From the IMG/VR virus record IMGVR_UViG_3300017769_000001, positions 1 through 64,000 of that record: DNA of 64,000 nucleotides; one strand, 5' to 3'. Shown one piece after another: positions 52,638-60,901 of this stretch; position 1 is the stretch's first letter, and each line of letters begins with the position of its first letter. Under the pieces are notes generated by a model that worked only from the letters and a program-made list of their open reading frames with translations, was not told the DNA's origin and did no database searches. The stretch is from a virus. Both the position numbers and the translations under genes were made by a program.

Positions 52638-52683
52638 AAAAAAATCCCCTTTAAAATCCTAATATCGGATTCTAAAGGGGATT
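52638..52683 (-). terminator. intrinsic terminator closing the tRNA array; a sigma70 promoter (TTGACA-17-TAGAAT, 52669..52697) overlaps its 5' arm
   Basis: AATCCCCTTTAGAATCC/GGATTTTAAAGGGGATT stem plus T run. Confidence 0.8.
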
Positions 52684-52702
52684 GCAGTAGATGTCAATAC
52701 GA

Positions 52703-52822
52703 GAGTGATGTGAGAATCGAACTCACCAGAACATCAGAAGCGCATTTCCGGCGTCCCTCCAGTCAACCACTTCTCACAAACCACCAACGCGCTGATGACT
52801 GTGATGTCAGACCTTATCACCC
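52703..52822 (-). ncRNA. tRNA-like RNA with extended central arm
   Basis: 7-bp acceptor GGGTGAT/ATCACTC, T arm GTGAG-TTCGATT-CTCAC, no D stem or anticodon loop. Confidence 0.6.
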
Positions 52823-52828
52823 ATAAAA

Positions 52829-52906
52829 TGGTGCCCATGGCATGGATTCGAACCTGCGACCTATCGCTTACAAGGCGATTGCTCTAACCAACTGAGCTAC
52901 ACGGGC
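52829..52906 (-). tRNA. tRNA-Thr(TGT)
   Basis: cloverleaf, CCA end, one extra base in the T stem. Confidence 0.9.
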
Positions 52907-53091
52907 TTAAAAAATATGATGTAGTACACTGCTCCAACTGAACAGAAACTCATCGCAACATAAAACAAACAACGAGCAACAACCGCTTTAACTGACATGG
53001 TGTTGAATATCACTTCTGGTATGATTGCTATCAAATTAGCTACACAGCAAATCGAAACAAATAACAGAATCACCACAATCATCATTGTCAC
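52897..53091 (-). CDS. small membrane protein
   Basis: two hydrophobic helices; lies between tRNAs. Confidence 0.45.
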   Translation of the reverse strand: MTMMIVVILLFVSICCVANLIAIIPEVIFNTMSVKAVVARCLFYVAMSFCSVGAVYYIIFFKPV

Positions 53092-53104
53092 CGTAGTTAT
53101 GTAA

Positions 53105-53179
53105 TGGAATCACTGACCGGACTCGAACCGATGTATTACGGGTTGCAACCGCACGCATAACCAACTCTGCCACAGTGAT
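53105..53179 (-). tRNA. tRNA-Cys(GCA)
   Basis: cloverleaf, U73, CCA end. Confidence 0.9.
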
Positions 53180-53180
53180 A

Positions 53181-53256
53181 TGGAAAGGGTGCTCGGACTC
53201 GAACCGAGGATTACCAGAATCAAAATCTGGTGCCTTACCAACTTGGCTACACCCTA
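53181..53256 (-). tRNA. tRNA-Gln(TTG)
   Basis: cloverleaf, CCA end. Confidence 0.9.
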
Positions 53257-53352
53257 TCAAAATGTGGGAGTGAACCGCAAATCCTCCCTACCCTGTGGTT
53301 CGGCTAAAGCTAGAAGACAAAAAGGCCGATTGCAGGTTTTCAAGTTGTTTAT

Positions 53353-53455
53353 CGCATCGCCAGTCAAGGACTCGAACCTTGTCTCCCGGTTGTCTCCTTC
53401 CCTAGTGTTGGGCGAGTCCAGCCAGTTTGCTCCAATACACCACATAGGCGATGCG
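53353..53455 (-). ncRNA. tRNA-like RNA
   Basis: 9-bp closing stem CGCATCGCC/GGCGATGCG and T arm CAAGG-TTCGAGT-CCTTG. Confidence 0.5.
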
Positions 53456-53471
53456 TCTTACTCGAAGGGCA

Positions 53472-53831
53472 CTACCCCTTCTTTCTGAAATCGTTCAACG
53501 TTTTCTTTGAAACGTCGAGTATTTTCAATGTTTCTTCGGGCTTCCAAGTCACGCAACTCGGCTCACTCGAAGGTTCATATCTGTTAGAGTACACGTATCC
53601 GTTAACCGAGTCAACCTCTTTTTCGAAAACAGACCGCCAGTCATAACCGTGATCAATTTCCTCTACAAACCGACTCGTATCAACTTCTACTCTGTGAAGG
53701 AAAAACTCAGAGTTCCTTCCGATCTTCCGAGCAACCGCTTCCAGAGCACTTTCCAGAGATCCAACATGAACACCCTGTTCTGTACACCGGAATCGACTTA
53801 TGAGTACCGGCGATGCATGATACGCTATCAT
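53472..53831 (-). CDS. small ART-fold-like protein
   Basis: AYHAS....F....GVHVG...A and Y.N.YE motifs. Confidence 0.5.
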   Translation of the reverse strand: MIAYHASPVLISRFRCTEQGVHVGSLESALEAVARKIGRNSEFFLHRVEVDTSRFVEEIDHGYDWRSVFEKEVDSVNGYVYSNRYEPSSEPSCVTWKPEETLKILDVSKKTLNDFRKKG

Positions 53832-54109
53832 GGTGCTGGTTTCTCTGCGGATCCTTTCCTTCCCTCTGCAACGTATCCGGATTCGAAATTCGGAAGCTGC
53901 ATTACAGGTTCAGTACTGATAACCTCCAGCCGCGTTACATCCATCCATGACGACATGTTATACTCGCCTTTCTCATCGGCTTTCATAGTCAACACAGCCT
54001 GAATGCATCCGTAAAGGTCAAAGGAAACCGTGGTGACAACCCCTTCGATACCAGTTACTTTGTCTTTCGCACGATAACCAAGAAGATTCAGATGACTGTT
54101 TACGCTCAT
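53828..54109 (-). CDS. hypothetical phage protein
   Basis: LG..AKDKVTG.EG.V.....LYGC.Q...W.D..RL. Confidence 0.7.
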   Translation of the reverse strand: MSVNSHLNLLGYRAKDKVTGIEGVVTTVSFDLYGCIQAVLTMKADEKGEYNMSSWMDVTRLEVISTEPVMQLPNFESGYVAEGRKGSAEKPAP

Positions 54110-54141
54110 AATGCTTACTCGTTTGGTTGTGTTTAACGGTA

Positions 54142-54243
54142 ATGCCCTTACAGGGTACGCCTGCCCGATTCACGAGAGTCACATGGCGCGCTTTCCATGC
54201 TTCGGCGGTTGTTTTGTTTCCGCCACGCACCCTGTAAGGACAC
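54142..54243 (-). ncRNA. four-way-junction RNA with ~19-bp closing stem
   Basis: GTGTCCTTACAGGGTGCGT/GCGTACCCTGTAAGGGCAT plus three hairpins. Confidence 0.55.
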
Positions 54244-54250
54244 TTTAAAT

Positions 54251-54344
54251 TGGTGGGGCCGGTTGGAATCGAACCAACGTTGTGTCATTGTGCCGGTTTT
54301 ACAGACCGGAGAGGAACATACACCCAGCGTCCTCAAACGTCCCC
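54251..54344 (-). tRNA. tRNA-Tyr(GTA), atypical D arm
   Basis: CCGGT-CTGTAAA-ACCGG, T arm, CCA end. Confidence 0.8.
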
Positions 54345-54348
54345 AAAA

Positions 54349-54426
54349 TGGTAGCGGGAGAGGGATTCGAACCCCCGTCATTTGGCTTATGAGACCAAGC
54401 TGGAACCAACTCCAGTCCACCCCGCG
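54349..54426 (-). tRNA. tRNA-Met(CAT), initiator-like
   Basis: CGCGGGG 5' end with unpaired position 1, CCA end. Confidence 0.85.
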
Positions 54427-54430
54427 TCAA

Positions 54431-54560
54431 ATGTTATTTGGCAATCGCTTGCTGGCCTGAATGGGCAGACCTTAACCTGTAGCCGAGTCAGGTTCCCTCT
54501 CCCTTTGCTCAACATCTTTCGGGCTATATTGCAAAGGAACAAGCGATTCCCAAATAACAT
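54431..54560 (-). ncRNA. multibranch RNA with ~21-bp closing stem
   Basis: ATGTTATTTGGGAATCGCTTG/CAAGCGATTGCCAAATAACAT plus three internal hairpins. Confidence 0.55.
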
Positions 54561-54561
54561 C

Positions 54562-54880
54562 TTTAGATCCGCCCTCGCCCACGACCCTTGCAAGGTTCGA
54601 TAATCGTGGGCTAGGACTTGCCAACTCACTTGATGGTTCCAAACAGGACTTGCACCCCTCGAACGCGCTATGCAGGAATCGAACCCAGCATCAAGATCGT
54701 TGACCATTTCGTTAGAACCCATTCTACACTGATGAATGAACTCTGTCAACTGGCGCCTCCGTTGTTTTTTACAAGGCGGAAGCAAACCTCCTTGAAGCAG
54801 TTCCCGTGGCTTACCCAACTCGTTGATCCGACGAGCCTAATACGCTTGCCACTTCGGTATACACCCATGCTTAGGGTATA
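54562..54880 (-). ncRNA. structured non-coding spacer with several hairpins and T-loop motifs
   Basis: GCCCACGA/TCGTGGGC, CTTGATG/CATCAAG enclosing GGTTCGATTCC and GGTGCAAGTCC, GTTGAC/GTCAAC, CTCGT/ACGAG. Confidence 0.45.
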
Positions 54881-54882
54881 TT

Positions 54883-54960
54883 TGGTAGGGGCGGTGAGAC
54901 TCGAACTCACGACCTACTGGTTAAAAGCCAGTTGCTGCTAACCAACTGAGCTACGCCCCT
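54883..54960 (-). tRNA. tRNA-Lys(TTT)
   Basis: cloverleaf, CCA end. Confidence 0.92.
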
Positions 54961-54975
54961 ATGTCCTTATTAATT

Positions 54976-55051
54976 TGGTAGTCGGAGTAGGAATCGAACC
55001 CACGTAGAACGGTATGTAAAACCGCCGCATAAGCCACTCTGCCATCCGACT
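54976..55051 (-). tRNA. tRNA-Val(TAC)
   Basis: GCGGT-TTTACAT-ACCGT, A73, CCA end. Confidence 0.85.
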
Positions 55052-55055
55052 GAAT

Positions 55056-55134
55056 TGGTGTGAAGGACGAGAATCGAACTCGCGTATACAAGGGTCACAA
55101 CCTTGCGCCTTAACCAACATCGGCCACCTTCACC
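55056..55134 (-). tRNA. tRNA-His(GTG)
   Basis: cloverleaf, encoded G-1, CCA end. Confidence 0.9.
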
Positions 55135-55140
55135 ACAACG

Positions 55141-55401
55141 TTACTTTACGCTGTAACATGCTGTTCCGGTTGCATTCTCGTTCCCAGCGACGAAAACACA
55201 CCGAACGTCGTCGCTGAAAGCAGGCGTCCATTCATAGACGCGAACATCGAACCCATGGGTCTCCAGTTTATACTTCACATCGGAATCCCGAGTAGTCCAT
55301 GACATCGTCACTGCACTGTCAAGCCACCCCGCGTTTACAGCTGCGATTGATGAAAAACTGATCGCAACTGCTGCCAGTACTACAAAGAAAAGCTTCTTCA
55401 T
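55141..55401 (-). CDS. small exported protein
   Basis: GGAG RBS, signal peptide MKKLFFVVLAAVAISFSSIAAVNA, two Cys. Confidence 0.7.
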   Translation of the reverse strand: MKKLFFVVLAAVAISFSSIAAVNAGWLDSAVTMSWTTRDSDVKYKLETHGFDVRVYEWTPAFSDDVRCVFVAGNENATGTACYSVK

Positions 55402-55427
55402 TACTCTCTCCTGCTTTGGTTGTGGAT

Positions 55428-55560
55428 TGTGACGACTCAAGCTTACAAGGAATCCCGCTTAACGCTTCACACGGCATAAGACTCACACTAACCGTGTACC
55501 CTGCCACACCGGAGTCCCGGCGTTTCTTGATAAGGCATTACTCAAATGAGTGCCGTCACA
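55428..55560 (-). ncRNA. multibranch closed-stem RNA
   Basis: TGTGACGGC/GTCGTCACA ends; ACGCCGG/CCGGTGT and ACACGG/CCGTGT hairpins. Confidence 0.5.
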
Positions 55561-55563
55561 AAA

Positions 55564-55639
55564 TGGTGCTAGGATCTGGATTCGAACCAGAGACCAATCG
55601 CTTATCAAGCGAACGTTCTACCAACTGAACTATCCTAGC
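55564..55639 (-). tRNA. tRNA-Ile(GAT)
   Basis: cloverleaf, CCA end. Confidence 0.92.
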
Positions 55640-55856
55640 GCAAACGTTTGTCGTTAACACGAACAAAATCAAAAACCAATCGATGTAGTGATGTAAGTTC
55701 TTCTTCACTCATTTCTTTCTTACGACCGCACCGCTCACAAACTTTGTATTTCGTAACTCTCAGTAGAGACCGATACGGGTGACTGGGGTCGATCCGAAGC
55801 TTTTTATACTTATGGAATCCAACCACACACTTAAACGGTTTCATTTCTAACACCAT
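55635..55856 (-). CDS. small Zn-finger-like phage protein
   Basis: C..GFHKY...CERCG. Confidence 0.6.
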   Translation of the reverse strand: MVLEMKPFKCVVGFHKYKKLRIDPSHPYRSLLRVTKYKVCERCGRKKEMSEEELTSLHRLVFDFVRVNDKRLR

Positions 55857-56124
55857 CTACTTCGTCGATATACCGCTGTGGTACTTTCTGACCAGAACAA
55901 AACTGGGTCGAAATCTCTGACTTGGAGTTCACATAAACATACCCACGTTCAATAACTCCGACTTCCTCGTTATAACGGTCGCGTACCAGTGCGATGTCTT
56001 TCCGATGATAATCCTTCTCTTCCATCAGAGCTTCTGAATAACTGTCGACTTTGTAGGTGTCTTGAATATCACCATGTTCGTCCACCTGCTCGACAACCCA
56101 TTCATAGGAAACTTTGTTTTTCAT
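55831..56124 (-). CDS. hypothetical protein
   Basis: GGAG RBS, own promoter upstream. Confidence 0.65.
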   Translation of the reverse strand: MKNKVSYEWVVEQVDEHGDIQDTYKVDSYSEALMEEKDYHRKDIALVRDRYNEEVGVIERGYVYVNSKSEISTQFCSGQKVPQRYIDEVDGVRNETV

Positions 56125-56154
56125 GACATCTCCCAGAAGTTCTAGTGAGATTGA

Positions 56155-56183
56155 ATTATTTCACAATAGAGTTTCGATGTCAA
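56155..56183 (-). promoter_or_regulatory. internal sigma70-type promoter
   Basis: TTGACA-17-AATAAT. Confidence 0.6.
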
Positions 56184-56192
56184 CAAGAATTT

Positions 56193-56269
56193 TGGTCGGA
56201 GTAGTAGGACTCGAACCTACGACCCTCTGCTCCCAAAGCAGATGCGCTACCAGACTGCGCTATACTCCG
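56193..56269 (-). tRNA. tRNA-Pro(TGG)
   Basis: canonical cloverleaf, CCA end. Confidence 0.95.
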
Positions 56270-56273
56270 ATGT

Positions 56274-56353
56274 TGGCACCCCCGGTAGGAATCGAACCCA
56301 CATGTGTCCAGTTAGCCTTTCTACTGGTTCGTAGCCAGAGGGCATACAGGGGT
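56274..56353 (-). tRNA. tRNA-Arg(ACG)-like, lacking a D arm
   Basis: acceptor ACCCCTG/CGGGGGT, CTGG-CTACGAA-CCAG, T arm, GCCA end. Confidence 0.7.
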
Positions 56354-56359
56354 ATTAAA

Positions 56360-56435
56360 TGGTGGAACGACAGGGACTCGAACCCTGAACCTGAGCCTTG
56401 CAAAGACCCTGCTCTCCCAGTTGAGCTATCATCCC
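56360..56435 (-). tRNA. tRNA-Ala(TGC)
   Basis: cloverleaf with G3:U70, CCA end. Confidence 0.93.
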
Positions 56436-56539
56436 GAGTATACATTGATCCTGCCTCTATGGCAATCCAAGCGATTCGTATAGGTCAGTGCCAACCAACC
56501 ACAACACACGCCCAGTAAAGGCAGGATCAATGTATACTT
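56436..56539 (-). ncRNA. RNA with 21-bp closing stem
   Basis: AAGTATACATTGATCCTGCCT/AGGCAGGATCAATGTATACTC inverted repeat filling the inter-tRNA gap. Confidence 0.5.
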
Positions 56540-56543
56540 AAAT

Positions 56544-56642
56544 TGGCGGAAGGACAGGGATTCGAACCCTGACGTCTACTCACGTAAACCCTCGGTTTTC
56601 AAGACCGCTGCCGCTACCCAGACTCTTTCGGCTTACCCTTCC
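56544..56642 (-). tRNA. tRNA-Ser(TGA), enlarged D loop
   Basis: CT-TGA-AA loop, long variable arm, G73, CCA end. Confidence 0.88.
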
Positions 56643-56651
56643 AAAATTAAA

Positions 56652-56757
56652 TGCAGGTTGGTGTCTCAAACCAAGAAATCCCGAACCCTGAACTGAGACA
56701 TTGGCAGTCTGTCGCGAATCGACACTTCCGCTCAGTTCTTTGAGGATTTTACCTGCA
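56652..56757 (-). ncRNA. multibranch closed-stem RNA
   Basis: TGCAGGT/ACCTGCA ends; TGTCG/CGACA and TGTCTCA/TGAGACA arms. Confidence 0.45.
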
Positions 56758-56760
56758 ATG

Positions 56761-56832
56761 TGGCACTCTGTCAAGGATTCGAACCCTGCACGGCGAAGTT
56801 TGGAGCCTCGCCTGCCCCCAAGAGCCCAGAGC
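56761..56832 (-). tRNA. tRNA-Trp(CCA), atypical geometry
   Basis: GGCGAGG-CTCCAAA-CTTCGCC, T arm, GCCA end. Confidence 0.78.
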
Positions 56833-56838
56833 ATAAAT

Positions 56839-56914
56839 TGGCTGGCGAAACAGGGCTCGAACCTGTGACCGTCTCCTTAACAGGGAGCTGCTCTACCAAC
56901 TGAGCTACACGCCA
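56839..56914 (-). tRNA. tRNA-Asn(GTT)
   Basis: cloverleaf, G73, CCA end. Confidence 0.9.
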
Positions 56915-56925
56915 ATAAACTTACC

Positions 56926-57038
56926 TTTGAATAGAGATCTGATCGGACTTGGGTATCTAATCGACTCCGACCCCTCAAGTCTTCAACTCGATATTGGTCA
57001 GATCCCTAATCAAAACCCATCAGTTTACGCCTGATGGG
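56926..57038 (-). ncRNA. long irregular hairpin plus short hairpin
   Basis: TTTGATTAGGGATCTGA/TCAGATCTCTATTCAAA, inner GACTTG/CAAGTC; CCCATCAG/CTGATGGG. Confidence 0.45.
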
Positions 57039-57045
57039 ACGCGTT

Positions 57046-57121
57046 TGGTGGAACCGGCTGGGATCGAACCAGCGACCACAAGATCTTCAATCAAGCACTC
57101 TACCAGCTGAGTTACAGTTCC
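57046..57121 (-). tRNA. tRNA-Phe(GAA)
   Basis: cloverleaf, two U:U mismatches in the anticodon stem, CCA end. Confidence 0.85.
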
Positions 57122-57125
57122 ATGA

Positions 57126-57200
57126 TGGTATCCCTTACCGGATTCGAACCGGTGTTACCGCCTTGAAAGGGCAGCGTCCTAACCGCTAGACGAAAGGGAC
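57126..57200 (-). tRNA. tRNA-Glu(TTC)
   Basis: cloverleaf, CCA end. Confidence 0.93.
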
Positions 57201-57205
57201 ATAAT

Positions 57206-57282
57206 TGGCGACTCCTACCGGGATCGAACCGGTGACCTTCCGCGTGACAGGCGGGTGCTCTAACCATCTGAGCTAAGGAGCC
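57206..57282 (-). tRNA. tRNA-Asp(GTC)
   Basis: cloverleaf, G73, CCA end. Confidence 0.93.
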
Positions 57283-57306
57283 ATTGTATAGTGATAGAAG
57301 TTTGAA

Positions 57307-57335
57307 ATTCTACCATGATCCTATACAAAGATCAA
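57307..57335 (-). promoter_or_regulatory. possible internal sigma70-type promoter
   Basis: TTGATC-17-TAGAAT with extended -10 TG. Confidence 0.5.
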
Positions 57336-57351
57336 ACTTAATTTCTTATTT

Positions 57352-57440
57352 TGGCGGTGAGTGTAGGACTCGAACCTACGCACCCCTTTCGGGATGTACG
57401 ACTTAGCAGGCCGCTGCATTACCAACTCTGCCAACTCACC
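57352..57440 (-). tRNA. tRNA-Ser(GCT)
   Basis: cloverleaf with long variable arm, CCA end. Confidence 0.93.
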
Positions 57441-57446
57441 TAAAAA

Positions 57447-57523
57447 TGGTACGGGAGGTGAGACTCGAACTCACAAACTTCGGAACCTAAATCCGACGGC
57501 TATGCCAATTCGCCTACTCCCGC
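57447..57523 (-). tRNA. tRNA-Leu(TAG), short variable loop
   Basis: TCGGA-TTTAGGT-TCCGA, CCA end. Confidence 0.9.
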
Positions 57524-57524
57524 A

Positions 57525-57600
57525 TGGTTGTGGGTGCTGGACTCGAACCAGCGACCTATAGGATATGAACCTACTGCTCTACCAACTGAGCTAACCCACA
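57525..57600 (-). tRNA. tRNA-CAT (Met or Ile2)
   Basis: cloverleaf, TT-CAT-AT loop, CCA end. Confidence 0.88.
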
Positions 57601-57614
57601 AAACTTTCCAACAA

Positions 57615-57625
57615 TGTTAAAGAAC
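57615..57625 (-). promoter_or_regulatory. rrn-type boxA antitermination element
   Basis: GTTCTTTAACA versus boxA consensus GCTCTTTAACA. Confidence 0.6.
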
Positions 57626-57646
57626 GCGACACTAATGGTCAAAAAT

Positions 57647-57721
57647 TGGAGCGGGTAATCGGTCTCGAACCGATCCACGGAGGGTGGAAGCCTCCCGCTC
57701 TACCAACTGAGCTATACCCGC
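57647..57721 (-). tRNA. tRNA-Gly(TCC)
   Basis: cloverleaf, U73, CCA end. Confidence 0.92.
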
Positions 57722-57740
57722 AAAACTTTTTCAACTTCCT

Positions 57741-57818
57741 AAAACGAGAAAACCCTTCTTGTTTGAAGGGCTTTCAGAAAACTTACGTGTGTTTACTCTA
57801 CGTACGCTAGAAGCCCTT
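57741..57818 (-). promoter_or_regulatory. transcription attenuator (mutually exclusive antiterminator and terminator)
   Basis: AAGCCCTT can pair with upstream AAGGGCTT or with downstream AAGGGTTT, which is followed by TCTCGTTTT. Confidence 0.65.
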
Positions 57819-57923
57819 AATCTCTACCTCGCGATCACTCCAAATATTAAAGCCGAGCGACATCGCGGGATTATGATATCCCTTTGCCGGTTGTGCTTTT
57901 GTGTTGGAGTTCATAGTAAACAT
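57807..57923 (-). CDS. leader peptide of the tRNA array (38 aa, absent from the ORF track)
   Basis: MFTMNSNTKAQPAKGYHNPAMSLGFNIWSDREVEIKGF; last codons form the antiterminator 5' strand. Confidence 0.6.
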   Translation of the reverse strand: MFTMNSNTKAQPAKGYHNPAMSLGFNIWSDREVEIKGF

Positions 57924-57992
57924 ACTTAAATTCTCTGAGTATTCCCTTAGTTAGTGTTGAAAAACTATCAAAATTTAGACCTACTGAAAAAT

Positions 57993-58080
57993 TTTAGATA
58001 CCTCTGACTAGGAGTCGAACCTAGATCGAAAACGCGAAGCGAATTCCGGCATACCGTTAACCGCACCAAAGGCATCTAAA
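57993..58080 (-). ncRNA. tRNA-like RNA without a normal anticodon loop
   Basis: 14-bp closing stem, D-like arm, T arm CTAGG-TTCGACT-CCTAG. Confidence 0.55.
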
Positions 58081-58085
58081 ATTTT

Positions 58086-58243
58086 ACCTGAATGAAGGAC
58101 TCGAACCTCCATATCTACATTACGTTGCACTGTCAGTAGAAAGGTAGCTTTCGCCATGAGTGCAGAGTCGCTTATTAGTATTACACGACCCATTCATATC
58201 GGCTTAGGCCACACCCCCGTATACCAGTTCCGGCAATTCAGGT
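58086..58243 (-). ncRNA. 158-nt tRNA-like RNA with expanded centre
   Basis: ACCTGAAT/ATTCAGGT acceptor, Leu-type D arm GCCGGAACTGGTATACGG, T arm GGAGG-TTCGAGT-CCTTC. Confidence 0.6.
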
Positions 58244-58244
58244 G

Positions 58245-59131
58245 TTGGGTTTCGCATTCAACGTAACGTACAAGTAGCCGGTATTACTCGTTACTATCAA
58301 ATGCAGCTCGTTCCTATTGTACTACTTTCTTGGTAATCCACCCACAGCTTCCCAAGTTTCTTTGCTCCCCGGCCTTTTCACGCTCCGCTTTCACGGCTAC
58401 GGTCGAATCTCCGGTTTAGATCCCAATCCAACCCTTTCCGGGTTTGGCTCTAAGGGATCGTTCTGCCTATTCTCTCTATTTAGATAGCCACAATTGGCTC
58501 TGTCATCTATGAATGGAGACATCAGGCTTCGCTCCAATTTTATGGTGACGGGTTCTTCCTGCCTAAACCGTGTGATTAGCACGTTCACCATCTTCGTTAG
58601 ATCCGCCTCTCAAGGTCGCAGACCAGTAACCAAACACGCTACTCTAATAGGCTTCAATCATCCGGATGGCCGTCCGTCGATTTTCCACCTGTCTGAGCCG
58701 AACATACCCCGATATGCCAACCCAGACCCCTTTCGGGATGAAACGACCCTTTCAGGCCGATCCATTAAACGCTTTCGAGTATACGCTTGTAACGAGTATT
58801 CGGGGATCACAATATTCATCCCTACGATGATAGCATGATCGAATGTTAGTCATACTTCCCAGAACCGTTACCTTAACTGGGTAAGGAAGTCCAGAAACCA
58901 ACTTGGCGGTTGGCTCTTAAACACCCTTTATACTGGATCGGCTTTGTGCGCCAACACAACTACCAATCCGACACCGTTGTTGGGAGTAACTCAGCCAACG
59001 ACTTCTAACCTCCCTAGTGCCCTCACTATAAACAACCGCCTAAGCAATCATTTATGAAGCCCGTATGTAAGACTCCAATTTTACCTCCGGTGATCTCGGA
59101 GGGTTTCACCGCCGGGTTCCCCCGACTGCGT
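58245..59131 (-). ncRNA. candidate giant structured ncRNA (GOLLD/ROOL-like size and context)
   Basis: ~890 nt with no credible gene, own sigma70 promoter, many GAAA-capped hairpins, abuts the tRNA array. Confidence 0.6.
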
Positions 59132-59136
59132 AATCT

Positions 59137-59165
59137 ATTCTATTAAAGGCTCACTCCATTGTCAA
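59137..59165 (-). promoter_or_regulatory. sigma70-type promoter, proximal
   Basis: TTGACA-17-TAGAAT with upstream A tracts. Confidence 0.8.
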
Positions 59166-59247
59166 CACCTTTTTCGAATTTTTTCGTTGATTCGATTCAG
59201 AAGACTTATGCCATGCCTTGTCTGCTTCCTAAGATCAACGTTTGAAA

Positions 59248-59277
59248 ATTATAAGCTCTAGTTAGTGTTCGTGTCAA
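59248..59277 (-). promoter_or_regulatory. sigma70-type promoter, distal
   Basis: TTGACA-18-TATAAT with upstream A/T tracts. Confidence 0.75.
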
Positions 59278-59304
59278 CCAAAATTTGAAGAAAATTTGAA
59301 AATT

Positions 59305-59637
59305 TTACGATCCCATTCGGATTGCACACTGAACAAGAAGATCTATCACATCCTTAATATCAAAGGCGAACGATATGTCGGATGCTCCGAAGTTCTTCTC
59401 AGTGAACTCAAACAGCTTCTCAGTTCTTCGCTCTACAACGAGACTCCCATTGGTCACACTCTTTCCGACGTCCAATGAAAGAACCCTGCCAATAAAGGCT
59501 GCAATTCTTGTTTCTGGCGTTACTTCTGAGATTAATGCAGACTCATGATATATACTAGCGATACGAGTTCCATTGAATCTGTCAACAACAGAAACCCAGC
59601 TACCACGCAGAACCAGTCTGTTGTTACTCATAACCAA
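59305..59637 (-). CDS. hypothetical protein
   Basis: coupled ORF, ends AIRMGS. Confidence 0.6.
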   Translation of the reverse strand: MVMSNNRLVLRGSWVSVVDRFNGTRIASIYHESALISEVTPETRIAAFIGRVLSLDVGKSVTNGSLVVERRTEKLFEFTEKNFGASDISFAFDIKDVIDLLVQCAIRMGS

Positions 59638-59977
59638 TCTCGTCCAGACAATCTTCGATCATCTTGCATATAGCATCGGTATCAGGATCCGGATCTCTCA
59701 GCCGTTCTACGACTTCCTTAACCGTAGCAACCAACTGATGGTGGTTGTTTGCAGCCCTTACAATGTACTCCAGACGCTCCTGACGATTGTTGTAGATGTC
59801 GTCAAATCCGATTGCTTCTGGTACGATACAAACAACATTCCCATTCGAGTCCTTTATACTGGATGACGTTGTTCCGTATTCATCATCACAACAAAGGGTA
59901 TACGGTTCGTTTCCGATGTACTTTCCGCATTGTTTAAACATCCATGGAAGGCCGAGAATCTCTTCACTTTCGCTCAT
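59624..59977 (-). CDS. hypothetical protein
   Basis: GAGG RBS; PW...IV.A.N.H..LV motif. Confidence 0.65.
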   Translation of the reverse strand: MSESEEILGLPWMFKQCGKYIGNEPYTLCCDDEYGTTSSSIKDSNGNVVCIVPEAIGFDDIYNNRQERLEYIVRAANNHHQLVATVKEVVERLRDPDPDTDAICKMIEDCLDEIGYE

Positions 59978-60146
59978 TCTGATTACCCTCAGTCTTGATT
60001 TTCAACAGCTGGTCTTCGAGATTCCATTCACGCTCGCTAACCAACTCTTCAGATAGCTTGATTTTGGCTATCAGTTTTCTCGCGACCACATCGTCGTCAA
60101 CTTCATCCATGACCATCTTACGAATTTCATCGAAGCTCTGCTTCAT
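59964..60146 (-). CDS. hypothetical coiled-coil protein
   Basis: GAGG RBS, 60 aa. Confidence 0.55.
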   Translation of the reverse strand: MKQSFDEIRKMVMDEVDDDVVARKLIAKIKLSEELVSEREWNLEDQLLKIKTEGNQNERK

Positions 60147-60184
60147 GATTGTTTCGATGCCTCAATTGCGTTTTAGATTTCAAG

Positions 60185-60303
60185 TTAACCGGCACATTCG
60201 GGATCGAACCGGGACACCATCGAATGATTGTCGCTACTCAGTTAAGATGCTACCTCGTCTCCCTTGCAGAGTCAACAGCACATCAAAGCCAGTGGCCGGT
60301 TAA
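60185..60303 (-). ncRNA. closed-stem RNA with T-arm motif
   Basis: TTAACCGGC/GCCGGTTAA ends; CGG-TTCGATC-CCG. Confidence 0.5.
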
Positions 60304-60305
60304 TA

Positions 60306-60432
60306 TGGCGTGTGATGGAAGGAGTCGAACCTTCGAACTAGCCACCCTCCACGAGAAGTCGTCCGCGCTTATGTCATAGTAGTCGAACCTACCCTTCTAC
60401 TACCGAGAAGCTCGGCGTGGAGATCATCACAC
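60306..60432 (-). ncRNA. 127-nt tRNA-like RNA with encoded CCA
   Basis: 8-bp acceptor GTGTGATG/CATCACAC, GCCA end, T arm GAAGG-TTCGACT-CCTTC. Confidence 0.65.
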
Positions 60433-60500
60433 TGCAAAGGAGTCTCGTAAAACCCCTTTACAGTGTGATCCCGGAATTATCCGGGATACACTGACTGGCT

Positions 60501-60890
60501 TTAGTCTCCCTTGCGGAGTTTAACCAGCTCTTCGATTGGCATGTTGCGCAGTTCCTCGTTTTGCTTCTCAGCAATGATCTGGTCGATCAGCTGGTTCTTC
60601 TGACGAGTTTCCGCTGCTTTCAGACGGGAAGCTTCCTGATCCTTACGAATTCGGATCACTTCCTTTACGACATCCATCTTCAGGTTCAGAGTGCTGTCTG
60701 TTGATGGGGTGTCGTCGACGAAAGAAATCTCCCCGGATTCTTTGATCTCAGAATACAGATCAGAAGCAACACTCTGAAGAGAAGTCTTACCCTTCATCGG
60801 AATGTCGAACAGGTCTTCGGTAGTCAGAAGTCCTTTCTGAGTTGCGAAGCGGATCTTCTTCTGTGCTGCTTTCAGGAAAATGTCACTCAT
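60501..60890 (-). CDS. hypothetical protein
   Basis: AAGGAG RBS; RF.T.KG.L..EDL.D.P motif and coiled coil. Confidence 0.75.
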   Translation of the reverse strand: MSDIFLKAAQKKIRFATQKGLLTTEDLFDIPMKGKTSLQSVASDLYSEIKESGEISFVDDTPSTDSTLNLKMDVVKEVIRIRKDQEASRLKAAETRQKNQLIDQIIAEKQNEELRNMPIEELVKLRKGD

Positions 60891-60901
60891 TTTATTGCTC
60901 C

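Follow-up and report, generated by a model that had tools for sequence, protein, structure and literature searches.

Genomic Setting and Layout of the Locus

The phage genome in IMG/VR record IMGVR_UViG_3300017769_000001 is 148,739 bp long and has direct terminal repeats. The window analyzed in this study is the first 64 kb (positions 1 to 64,000) of this record. A 671-aa protein encoded 1.8 kb upstream of the RNA described below showed approximately 49% identity to Vequintavirinae-type phage proteins (Klebsiella, Serratia, Acinetobacter, and Vibrio). Among 5.8 billion proteins, its >90% cluster contained two members and its next nearest relative was only 57% identical, which indicates that this phage lineage is isolated in the databases. 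A total of 19 tRNA genes were annotated with ARAGORN and Rfam from 57721 down to 52829 on the minus strand, and the RNA region and the promoters are located on the same strand. The features of the locus are listed from the upstream end.

59248..59277, minus strand: promoter P1, TTGACA-18-TATAAT, matching the consensus at 12/12 positions
59137..59165, minus strand: promoter P2, TTGACA-17-TAGAAT, matching the consensus at 11/12 positions, with an A-rich tract in front
58245..59131, minus strand: non-coding RNA stretch of 887 nt between P2 and the tRNA-like element
58527..59131, minus strand: abundant RNA core of about 600 nt, from RNA contigs; MFE −220.9 kcal/mol, z −4.29
59073..59083, minus strand: first copy of the 11-mer UAAAAUUGGAG, immediately 3′ of a hairpin
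58683..58783, minus strand: tRNA-Ser(GCU)-derived module, from MAFFT alignment and blastn
58532..58542, minus strand: second copy of UAAAAUUGGAG, immediately 3′ of the AUGGUGA/UCACCAU stem, where the core appears to end on its 3′ side
58245..58526, minus strand: 3′ part of the stretch, with little or no RNA contig coverage and a 41-codon ORF inside
58086..58244, minus strand: tRNA-like element 1, 158 nt, from ARAGORN with introns allowed
57999..58073, minus strand: tRNA-like element 2, aberrant, inside a 19-nt inverted repeat (57988-58006 / 58067-58085)
57748..57775, minus strand: terminator-like hairpin and U tract, 27 nt upstream of tRNA-Gly
57721-57647, minus strand: tRNA-Gly, the first canonical tRNA, 3′ of the terminator-like hairpin

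The G+C content of the RNA stretch was 48.7%, which is similar to that of the tRNA array, whereas the flanks have 40-41%. Two ORF-free gaps (no ORF of at least 80 aa) are located outside the window at 81058-82615 (1558 nt) and 99800-100448 (649 nt), and an Rfam search of both gaps gave no match at E ≤ 1.

Absence of Coding Signal

The earlier note on this DNA saw no credible gene in the stretch, and ORF lengths, a recoding test, codon usage, and protein searches bore this out. The longest ORF has 114 aa and lies on the antisense strand; it had no Pfam match and no relative among the 5.8 billion proteins. The sense-strand ORFs have 41, 53, and 64 codons. The best-frame codon-usage score in the stretch was at most −0.10, against a mean of +0.19 and a 5th percentile of +0.056 for the real genes of the genome. 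A recoded gene was rejected, as no single stop-codon reassignment yielded more than 214 codons and no frame was opened. The 41-codon ORF (58522-58397, minus strand) stands behind GGAG-N9-AUG, and its codon usage is non-coding-like. Its position nearly coincides with 58381-58526, the only part of the stretch without an RNA contig.

Promoters and tRNA-like Elements

The near-consensus promoter reported in front of the stretch was found on the minus strand at 59165-59137. Its hexamers are TTGACA (59165-59160) and TAGAAT (59142-59137) with a spacing of 17 nt, and the start predicted from this promoter (P2) is an A at approximately 59131. P1 is located 112 nt further upstream than P2. Near-consensus promoters recur on the minus strand within 52669-59277, namely TTGACA-17-TAGAAT at 59165, 54749, and 52697, TTGACA-17-TAAAAT at 56774, and TTGACA-17-AATAAT at 56183. 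This recurrence makes the array look like several transcription units.

At its 3′-end, the stretch abuts a tRNA-like element (58244-58086), as had been described, although ARAGORN called this element only when introns were allowed. The element has acceptor, D, and T arms and a large insert. The 3′ tail of the RNA (58270-58259, 12 nt) is 92% complementary to a part of this insert (58127-58116). The stretch was also said to head the tRNA operon. It does adjoin the tRNA cluster on the upstream side, but the terminator-like hairpin at 57775-57748 precedes the first canonical tRNA. The position of this hairpin between the unit and tRNA-Gly suggests an upstream unit with read-through more than a single operon.

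The 11-mer UAAAAUUGGAG has two exact copies 541 nt apart; when up to one mismatch was allowed, 4 matches were found in the window against 1.5 expected. The second copy, A/U-rich and presumably unpaired, is a candidate site for processing. An exact 11-bp direct repeat, AACACTAACTA (minus strand), is located at 59259-59269 in the spacer of P1 and at 57948-57958 just past tRNA-like element 2. The two copies flank the entire 1.3-kb unit; they may represent an operator or the scar of a cassette, or may have arisen by chance.

Low-scoring extra tRNA candidates, called only by relaxed or intron-allowing ARAGORN, were Ser(TGA) at 56544-56629, Tyr(GTA) at 54251-54344 with a 5-nt insert, and Val(GAC) at 53356-53451 with a 25-nt insert, all on the minus strand. 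Positions 56540-56611 were matched at high depth by RNA contigs of other organisms, as expected for real tRNA-like sequence.

Presence in Environmental RNA Libraries

One DNA run (a biofilm metagenome) and three RNA runs were examined out of the 18 public runs listed for the stretch. The RNA runs are two sediment metatranscriptomes from one study and one marine metatranscriptome from another. Nine of the remaining runs share only a small portion of their sequence words with the stretch and are uninformative as to habitat. The runs were picked for containing the stretch, and the contigs give no strand, true ends, or expression level.

Five RNA contigs at 97-100% identity and a depth of 4-43 lay on the core (58527-58792, 58763-59114, 58552-59084, 58632-58922, and 58921-59107). 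Two contigs on the 3′ side (58109-58315 and 58146-58380) had a depth of approximately 2.4, and both span 58245. Positions 58526-58381 were uncovered in all three RNA runs. No contig of the three runs lay on the coding genes at 59173-61000 or on the tRNA-array spacers at 56000-56166, 56668-56834, and 57837-58003. RNA-run matches to the tRNA genes were mostly less than 90% identical and came from other organisms. In the DNA run, by comparison, 58246-61000 was evenly covered at a depth of approximately 24. DNA contamination would cover the flanks, so the contigs represent RNA that is far more abundant than the neighboring mRNAs. A discrete stable transcript, the absence of which would have spoken against the earlier description, is thus consistent with contigs on the RNA and none on the flanking genes.

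The 5′-most contig ends were 59114, 59107, and 59084, which is 17-47 nt short of the P2 start. The 110 nt between the predicted start of P1 and P2 had no RNA contig (bins 59173-59339 at or near zero). The proximity of the contig ends to the P2 start and the lack of contigs toward P1 fit P2 as the working promoter. From the promoter and the folding asymmetry given below, we infer that the RNA is encoded on the minus strand.

The depth falls more than ten-fold between 58527 and 58380, and together with the uncovered positions this suggests that the accumulating species is the 5′ part of about 600 nt. The proposed RNA of about 890 nt therefore stands as a transcribed stretch, but the RNA contigs suggest that the abundant species extends only from 59131 to approximately 58527. 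The proposed 3′-end also needs revision: the contigs spanning 58245 indicate that at least some transcripts continue past this position into tRNA-like element 1.

Close Relative and Module Boundary

A close relative was found in the biofilm DNA run as a 20,283-bp contig with approximately 98.6% identity. It is fully collinear over 58246-59131. The adjacent 57969-58245 (277 nt, containing both tRNA-like elements) is replaced by 100 other letters, and this cassette junction at 58245/58246 falls exactly on the 3′ coordinate proposed earlier for the RNA. A piece of the tRNA array at 56551-56760 (210 nt) is replaced by 538 other letters in the same relative, which is a further case of cassette turnover.

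At least six substitutions were found in relatives within 58246-58783, of which 4 are at positions unpaired in the MFE structure and 2 break terminal pairs. None of the substitutions listed was compensatory, and relatives of at least 97% identity are uninformative on this point either way.

Predicted Folding

All the hairpins listed in the earlier note are present in the sequence and in the predicted fold of the minus strand. They are the hairpins GGCCU-GAAA-GGGUC, (AU)CCC-GAAA-GGG(GU), and AACCC-GGAAA-GGGUU, and the stems CCUCCG/CGGAGG, GCCAAC/GUUGGU, and AUGGUGA/UCACCAU. Further hairpins are GUCGGG-GGAA-CCCGGC at the 5′-end and CCGU-GAAA-GCGG. The predicted core starts with the GGAA-capped hairpin (59130-59107), followed by the CCUCCG/CGGAGG stem (59102-59084) and a chain of stable hairpins, and ends past the AUGGUGA/UCACCAU stem. 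The 3′ part (58245-58526) holds AACCC-GGAAA-GGGUU and CCGU-GAAA-GCGG. GNRA-capped hairpins with a stem of at least 4 pairs numbered 4, against 0.98 ± 0.99 in 2000 dinucleotide shuffles (P 0.018), and only 0.6% of the 887-nt windows of the genome have at least 4.

The MFE of the sense strand was −302.3 kcal/mol (z −4.83), compared with −234.6 kcal/mol (z −2.53) for the antisense strand, both against dinucleotide shuffles. The 5′ 612 nt alone had an MFE z of −4.29. Coding controls (13 windows of 612 nt from the same genome) ranged from z +0.78 to −4.68, and one of the 13 folds equally well relative to its own shuffles, so the z of the RNA is extreme yet within the control range. In 160-nt windows, the strongest values were z −5.1 at 58970-58811 and z −3.8 at 58570-58411, against a mean of −0.6 (SD 1.25) for 160-nt coding controls, and several sub-windows of the RNA were unremarkable. 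A global fold of the 1.39-kb unit was rejected. Its predicted long-range pairs differ with the folded length, and only the local helices are therefore taken as reasonably supported.

tRNA-Ser-Derived Module

The 22 tRNAs of the genome were aligned to the unit, and the only significant tRNA match inside the 887 nt was to the phage's own tRNA-Ser(GCU). By blastn, RNA positions 365-406 matched this tRNA at 34/42 positions (E 5e-6). In the MAFFT alignment, the likeness runs from the D loop to the T arm over approximately 100 nt (58783-58683). The variable-arm hairpin CAUCCCGAAAGGGGU is identical at 15/15 positions, and the anticodon loop CUGCUAA of tRNA-Ser(GCU) corresponds to CUGAAAGG in the module. 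An insert of 16-19 nt and the degenerate T arm form a predicted 15-bp hairpin with the helix 405-414/432-441. This hairpin contains several G-U pairs, at which the opposite strand would have A-C mismatches. The lack of an acceptor stem means that the module cannot function as a tRNA. Two of the three GAAA hairpins first noticed in the stretch fall in this module.

The rest of the 887 nt showed no tRNA likeness, and the tRNA covariance model found nothing inside at E ≤ 10. An array of tRNA pseudogenes was rejected, as only approximately 100 of the 887 nt can be aligned to a tRNA. A string of intron-bearing tRNAs was also rejected, as the relaxed ARAGORN calls are weak and input-dependent and occur equally on the wrong strand elsewhere.

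A 157-nt sediment RNA contig was approximately 81% identical (19 mismatches, 2 gaps) to 58683-58792 and reaches past the tRNA-Ser-like part on both sides. This contig may come from a homologue that has diverged in the central module.

Family and Homologue Searches

Membership of the RNA in an Rfam 15 family was not detected. At gathering thresholds, cmscan of the 64-kb window found only tRNAs. At E ≤ 10, the 1.8-kb region and a 641-nt core gave, besides tRNA-Gly, only chance snoRNA and leader matches with E of at least 4. The Rfam 15 families tested include group I/II introns, RNase P, tmRNA, 6S, OLE, HEARO, and raiA. The ROOL model (RF03087) had no match in the whole 148.7-kb genome at E ≤ 10, and control genomes were likewise without a match. 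The GOLLD model (RF02032), 3′ domain included, had no match in the whole genome at the same threshold. The earlier note had proposed that the RNA belongs to a class such as GOLLD or ROOL or to a new one. With cmscan returning only tRNA and with the dedicated searches empty at E ≤ 10, membership of GOLLD or ROOL is not supported.

The search for relatives yielded no diverged homologue in GenBank phages, IMG/VR, JGI, GTDB, or the protein set. BLASTN against 50,697 GenBank phage records gave none at E ≤ 1e-5 or E ≤ 5. None was found with nhmmer and blastn in 53 IMG/VR loci carrying the 671-aa neighbor or by BLAST of 42 full records, and the neighboring 117-aa protein, used as a lead in IMG/VR and JGI metagenomes, led to no RNA homologue. 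A twin-GAAA pattern occurred 0 times in IMG/VR, 20 times in JGI metagenomes, and 15 times in GTDB genomes; all of these were chance matches by nhmmer and blastn. The 18- to 21-mers from the 5′ region, a hairpin, and tRNA-Gly retrieved no diverged homologue from IMG/VR.

Interpretation

The stretch is a real, abundant non-coding RNA, an orphan that is GOLLD/ROOL-like in context only. We lean toward reading it as a functional, lineage-specific large RNA in the GOLLD/ROOL niche. By analogy, its most likely role would be that of a structural/scaffold or decoy RNA tied to tRNA biology. Host sigma-70 RNA polymerase would start at approximately 59131 from P2, and the transcript would open with a hairpin one base past the start. 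Hairpins of this kind at the 5′-end are known to protect transcripts from 5′-end-dependent decay, and the hairpin here may guard the RNA in this way. Judging from the RNA contigs, the first 600 nt or so accumulate far above the neighboring mRNAs and tRNA spacers, and the transcript runs a further 280 nt or so into the tRNA-like element at approximately ten-fold lower abundance. A cut in the UAAAAUUGGAG tract past the AUGGUGA/UCACCAU stem may create the 3′-end of the stable core, and the remainder may be trimmed by RNase P acting on the tRNA-like element. The alignment shows that the core was partly built from the phage's own captured tRNA-Ser, with the variable arm kept and the anticodon loop and T arm remade into new hairpins.

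We also considered a new large phage RNA class that does the job of GOLLD and ROOL with an unrelated sequence and an exapted tRNA-Ser, acting as a decoy, shield, or carrier; this we regard as quite unlikely. As a decoy, the type-II variable-arm hairpin and the tRNA-like elements in cis would serve as a shield against tRNA-targeting host defenses. One such defense, Septu, has been reported to cut tRNA-Tyr in its variable loop (PMC13096335). As a carrier, the RNA could self-assemble and transport the phage's own tRNAs.

The functional reading has to be weighed against an inert stable by-product: decayed tRNA genes and hairpins would form a leader or spacer of the tRNA unit that is driven by a strong promoter and hard to degrade. 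One segment is indeed a degenerate copy of tRNA-Ser, two aberrant tRNA-like elements lie directly downstream, and the tRNA region undergoes cassette turnover between near-identical phages. The lack of homologues outside the lineage and the overlap of the folding z with the coding controls also suit such a by-product. We nevertheless consider it rather doubtful. Most of the stretch does not resemble tRNA, the relaxed ARAGORN calls inside it being poor and unstable, and other spacers of the same array are absent from the RNA libraries. The tRNA-Ser piece is not merely decaying, since it keeps its variable arm intact and has gained a hairpin with strand-specific G-U pairs. The RNA also remained collinear in the relative while the adjacent cassettes were swapped. 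If the RNA is an inert leader, it would be a caution that stable by-products of tRNA operons can dominate the phage signal in metatranscriptomes.

A cis-regulatory leader, which by antitermination, attenuation, or RNase E/P entry would control how far transcription passes the terminator at 57775-57748 or how the downstream tRNAs are processed, is very improbable in our view. The unit does have strong promoters on one side and, on the other, a terminator-like hairpin shortly before the first tRNA. However, a boxA leader was rejected because the sense strand has no boxA, and approximately 900 nt far exceeds known attenuators. The abundant species, moreover, ends approximately 750 nt upstream of the terminator, so the RNA that accumulates is not the regulatory junction.

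A cluster of small protein genes (the 41-codon ORF at 58522-58397, for instance, or the 53- and 64-codon sense ORFs) can hardly be credited: one ORF does have a Shine-Dalgarno-like GGAG and coincides with the gap in RNA contigs, but no window reached the 5th percentile of the in-frame codon-usage score of the genome, the 114-aa antisense ORF, which is the ORF that was searched, had neither a Pfam match nor a homologue, and the sole change in the 41-codon ORF among the differences listed in relatives is a double substitution, N to R.

Comparison with Known Systems

If the RNA is a functional large RNA, as we favor, its core would be a compact new target of approximately 600 nt for cryo-EM. The RNA is abundant enough that environmental RNA yields assembled contigs of it but not of the remaining phage genome, and the embedded tRNA-Ser fragment would offer a rare view of a large RNA being built from a tRNA gene.

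The tRNA cluster of phage T4 encodes rnaC and rnaD, which are stable non-tRNA RNAs consisting of single modules of 119-139 nt with unknown function. They are released from precursors that they share with the co-transcribed phage tRNAs. In contrast, the RNA described here exceeds them in size by a factor of 5-7, is preceded by its own promoter, and is located upstream of the array.

Polycistrons of irregular or allo-tRNA-like sequences, possibly regulatory non-coding RNAs, have been described in soil metatranscriptomes (PMC5389517). The likeness is that a non-canonical tRNA-derived sequence is seen as RNA in metatranscriptomes. The difference is that only approximately 100 of the 887 nt are tRNA-derived here, and that piece is without an acceptor stem.

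ROOL is an RNA of approximately 580 nt encoded in the vicinity of tRNA islands by phages and prophages; its abundance has been reported to equal that of 16S rRNA, and it has no known protein partner (PMC12286853). The core described here, at about 600 nt, is similar in size and exceeds the neighboring mRNAs in abundance, as judged from contigs that give no true ends, strand, or absolute level. The ROOL model does not match it at E ≤ 10. ROOL also has a pseudoknotted architecture, whereas only local helices are reasonably supported in the present RNA.

GOLLD is a large phage and prophage RNA, with many members longer than 800 nt; it is often encoded at tRNA islands, its linker sometimes contains tRNAs, and its expression rises during lysis of phage-infected cells (PMC12286853). 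Its 3′ domain has been called universally conserved, and GOLLD forms a 14-mer homo-oligomeric nanocage (PMC12286853). The RNA described here differs in having no match to the GOLLD model anywhere in the genome at E ≤ 10, 3′ domain included, and it is known from sequence and contigs with a fold that is only predicted. It resembles GOLLD in being a phage RNA of 0.6-0.9 kb that adjoins an array of 19 tRNAs, is present in RNA libraries, and has a module derived from a tRNA within it as well as a tRNA-like element in cis. According to recent work, GOLLD and ROOL, which are encoded at the tRNA islands of phages, are nanocages made of RNA alone, with a function that is unknown (PMC12286853). If the functional reading is true, the RNA would be a third unrelated large RNA in this niche, which would suggest that placing a big stable RNA beside the tRNAs is a strategy that recurs among phages and is not peculiar to two families.
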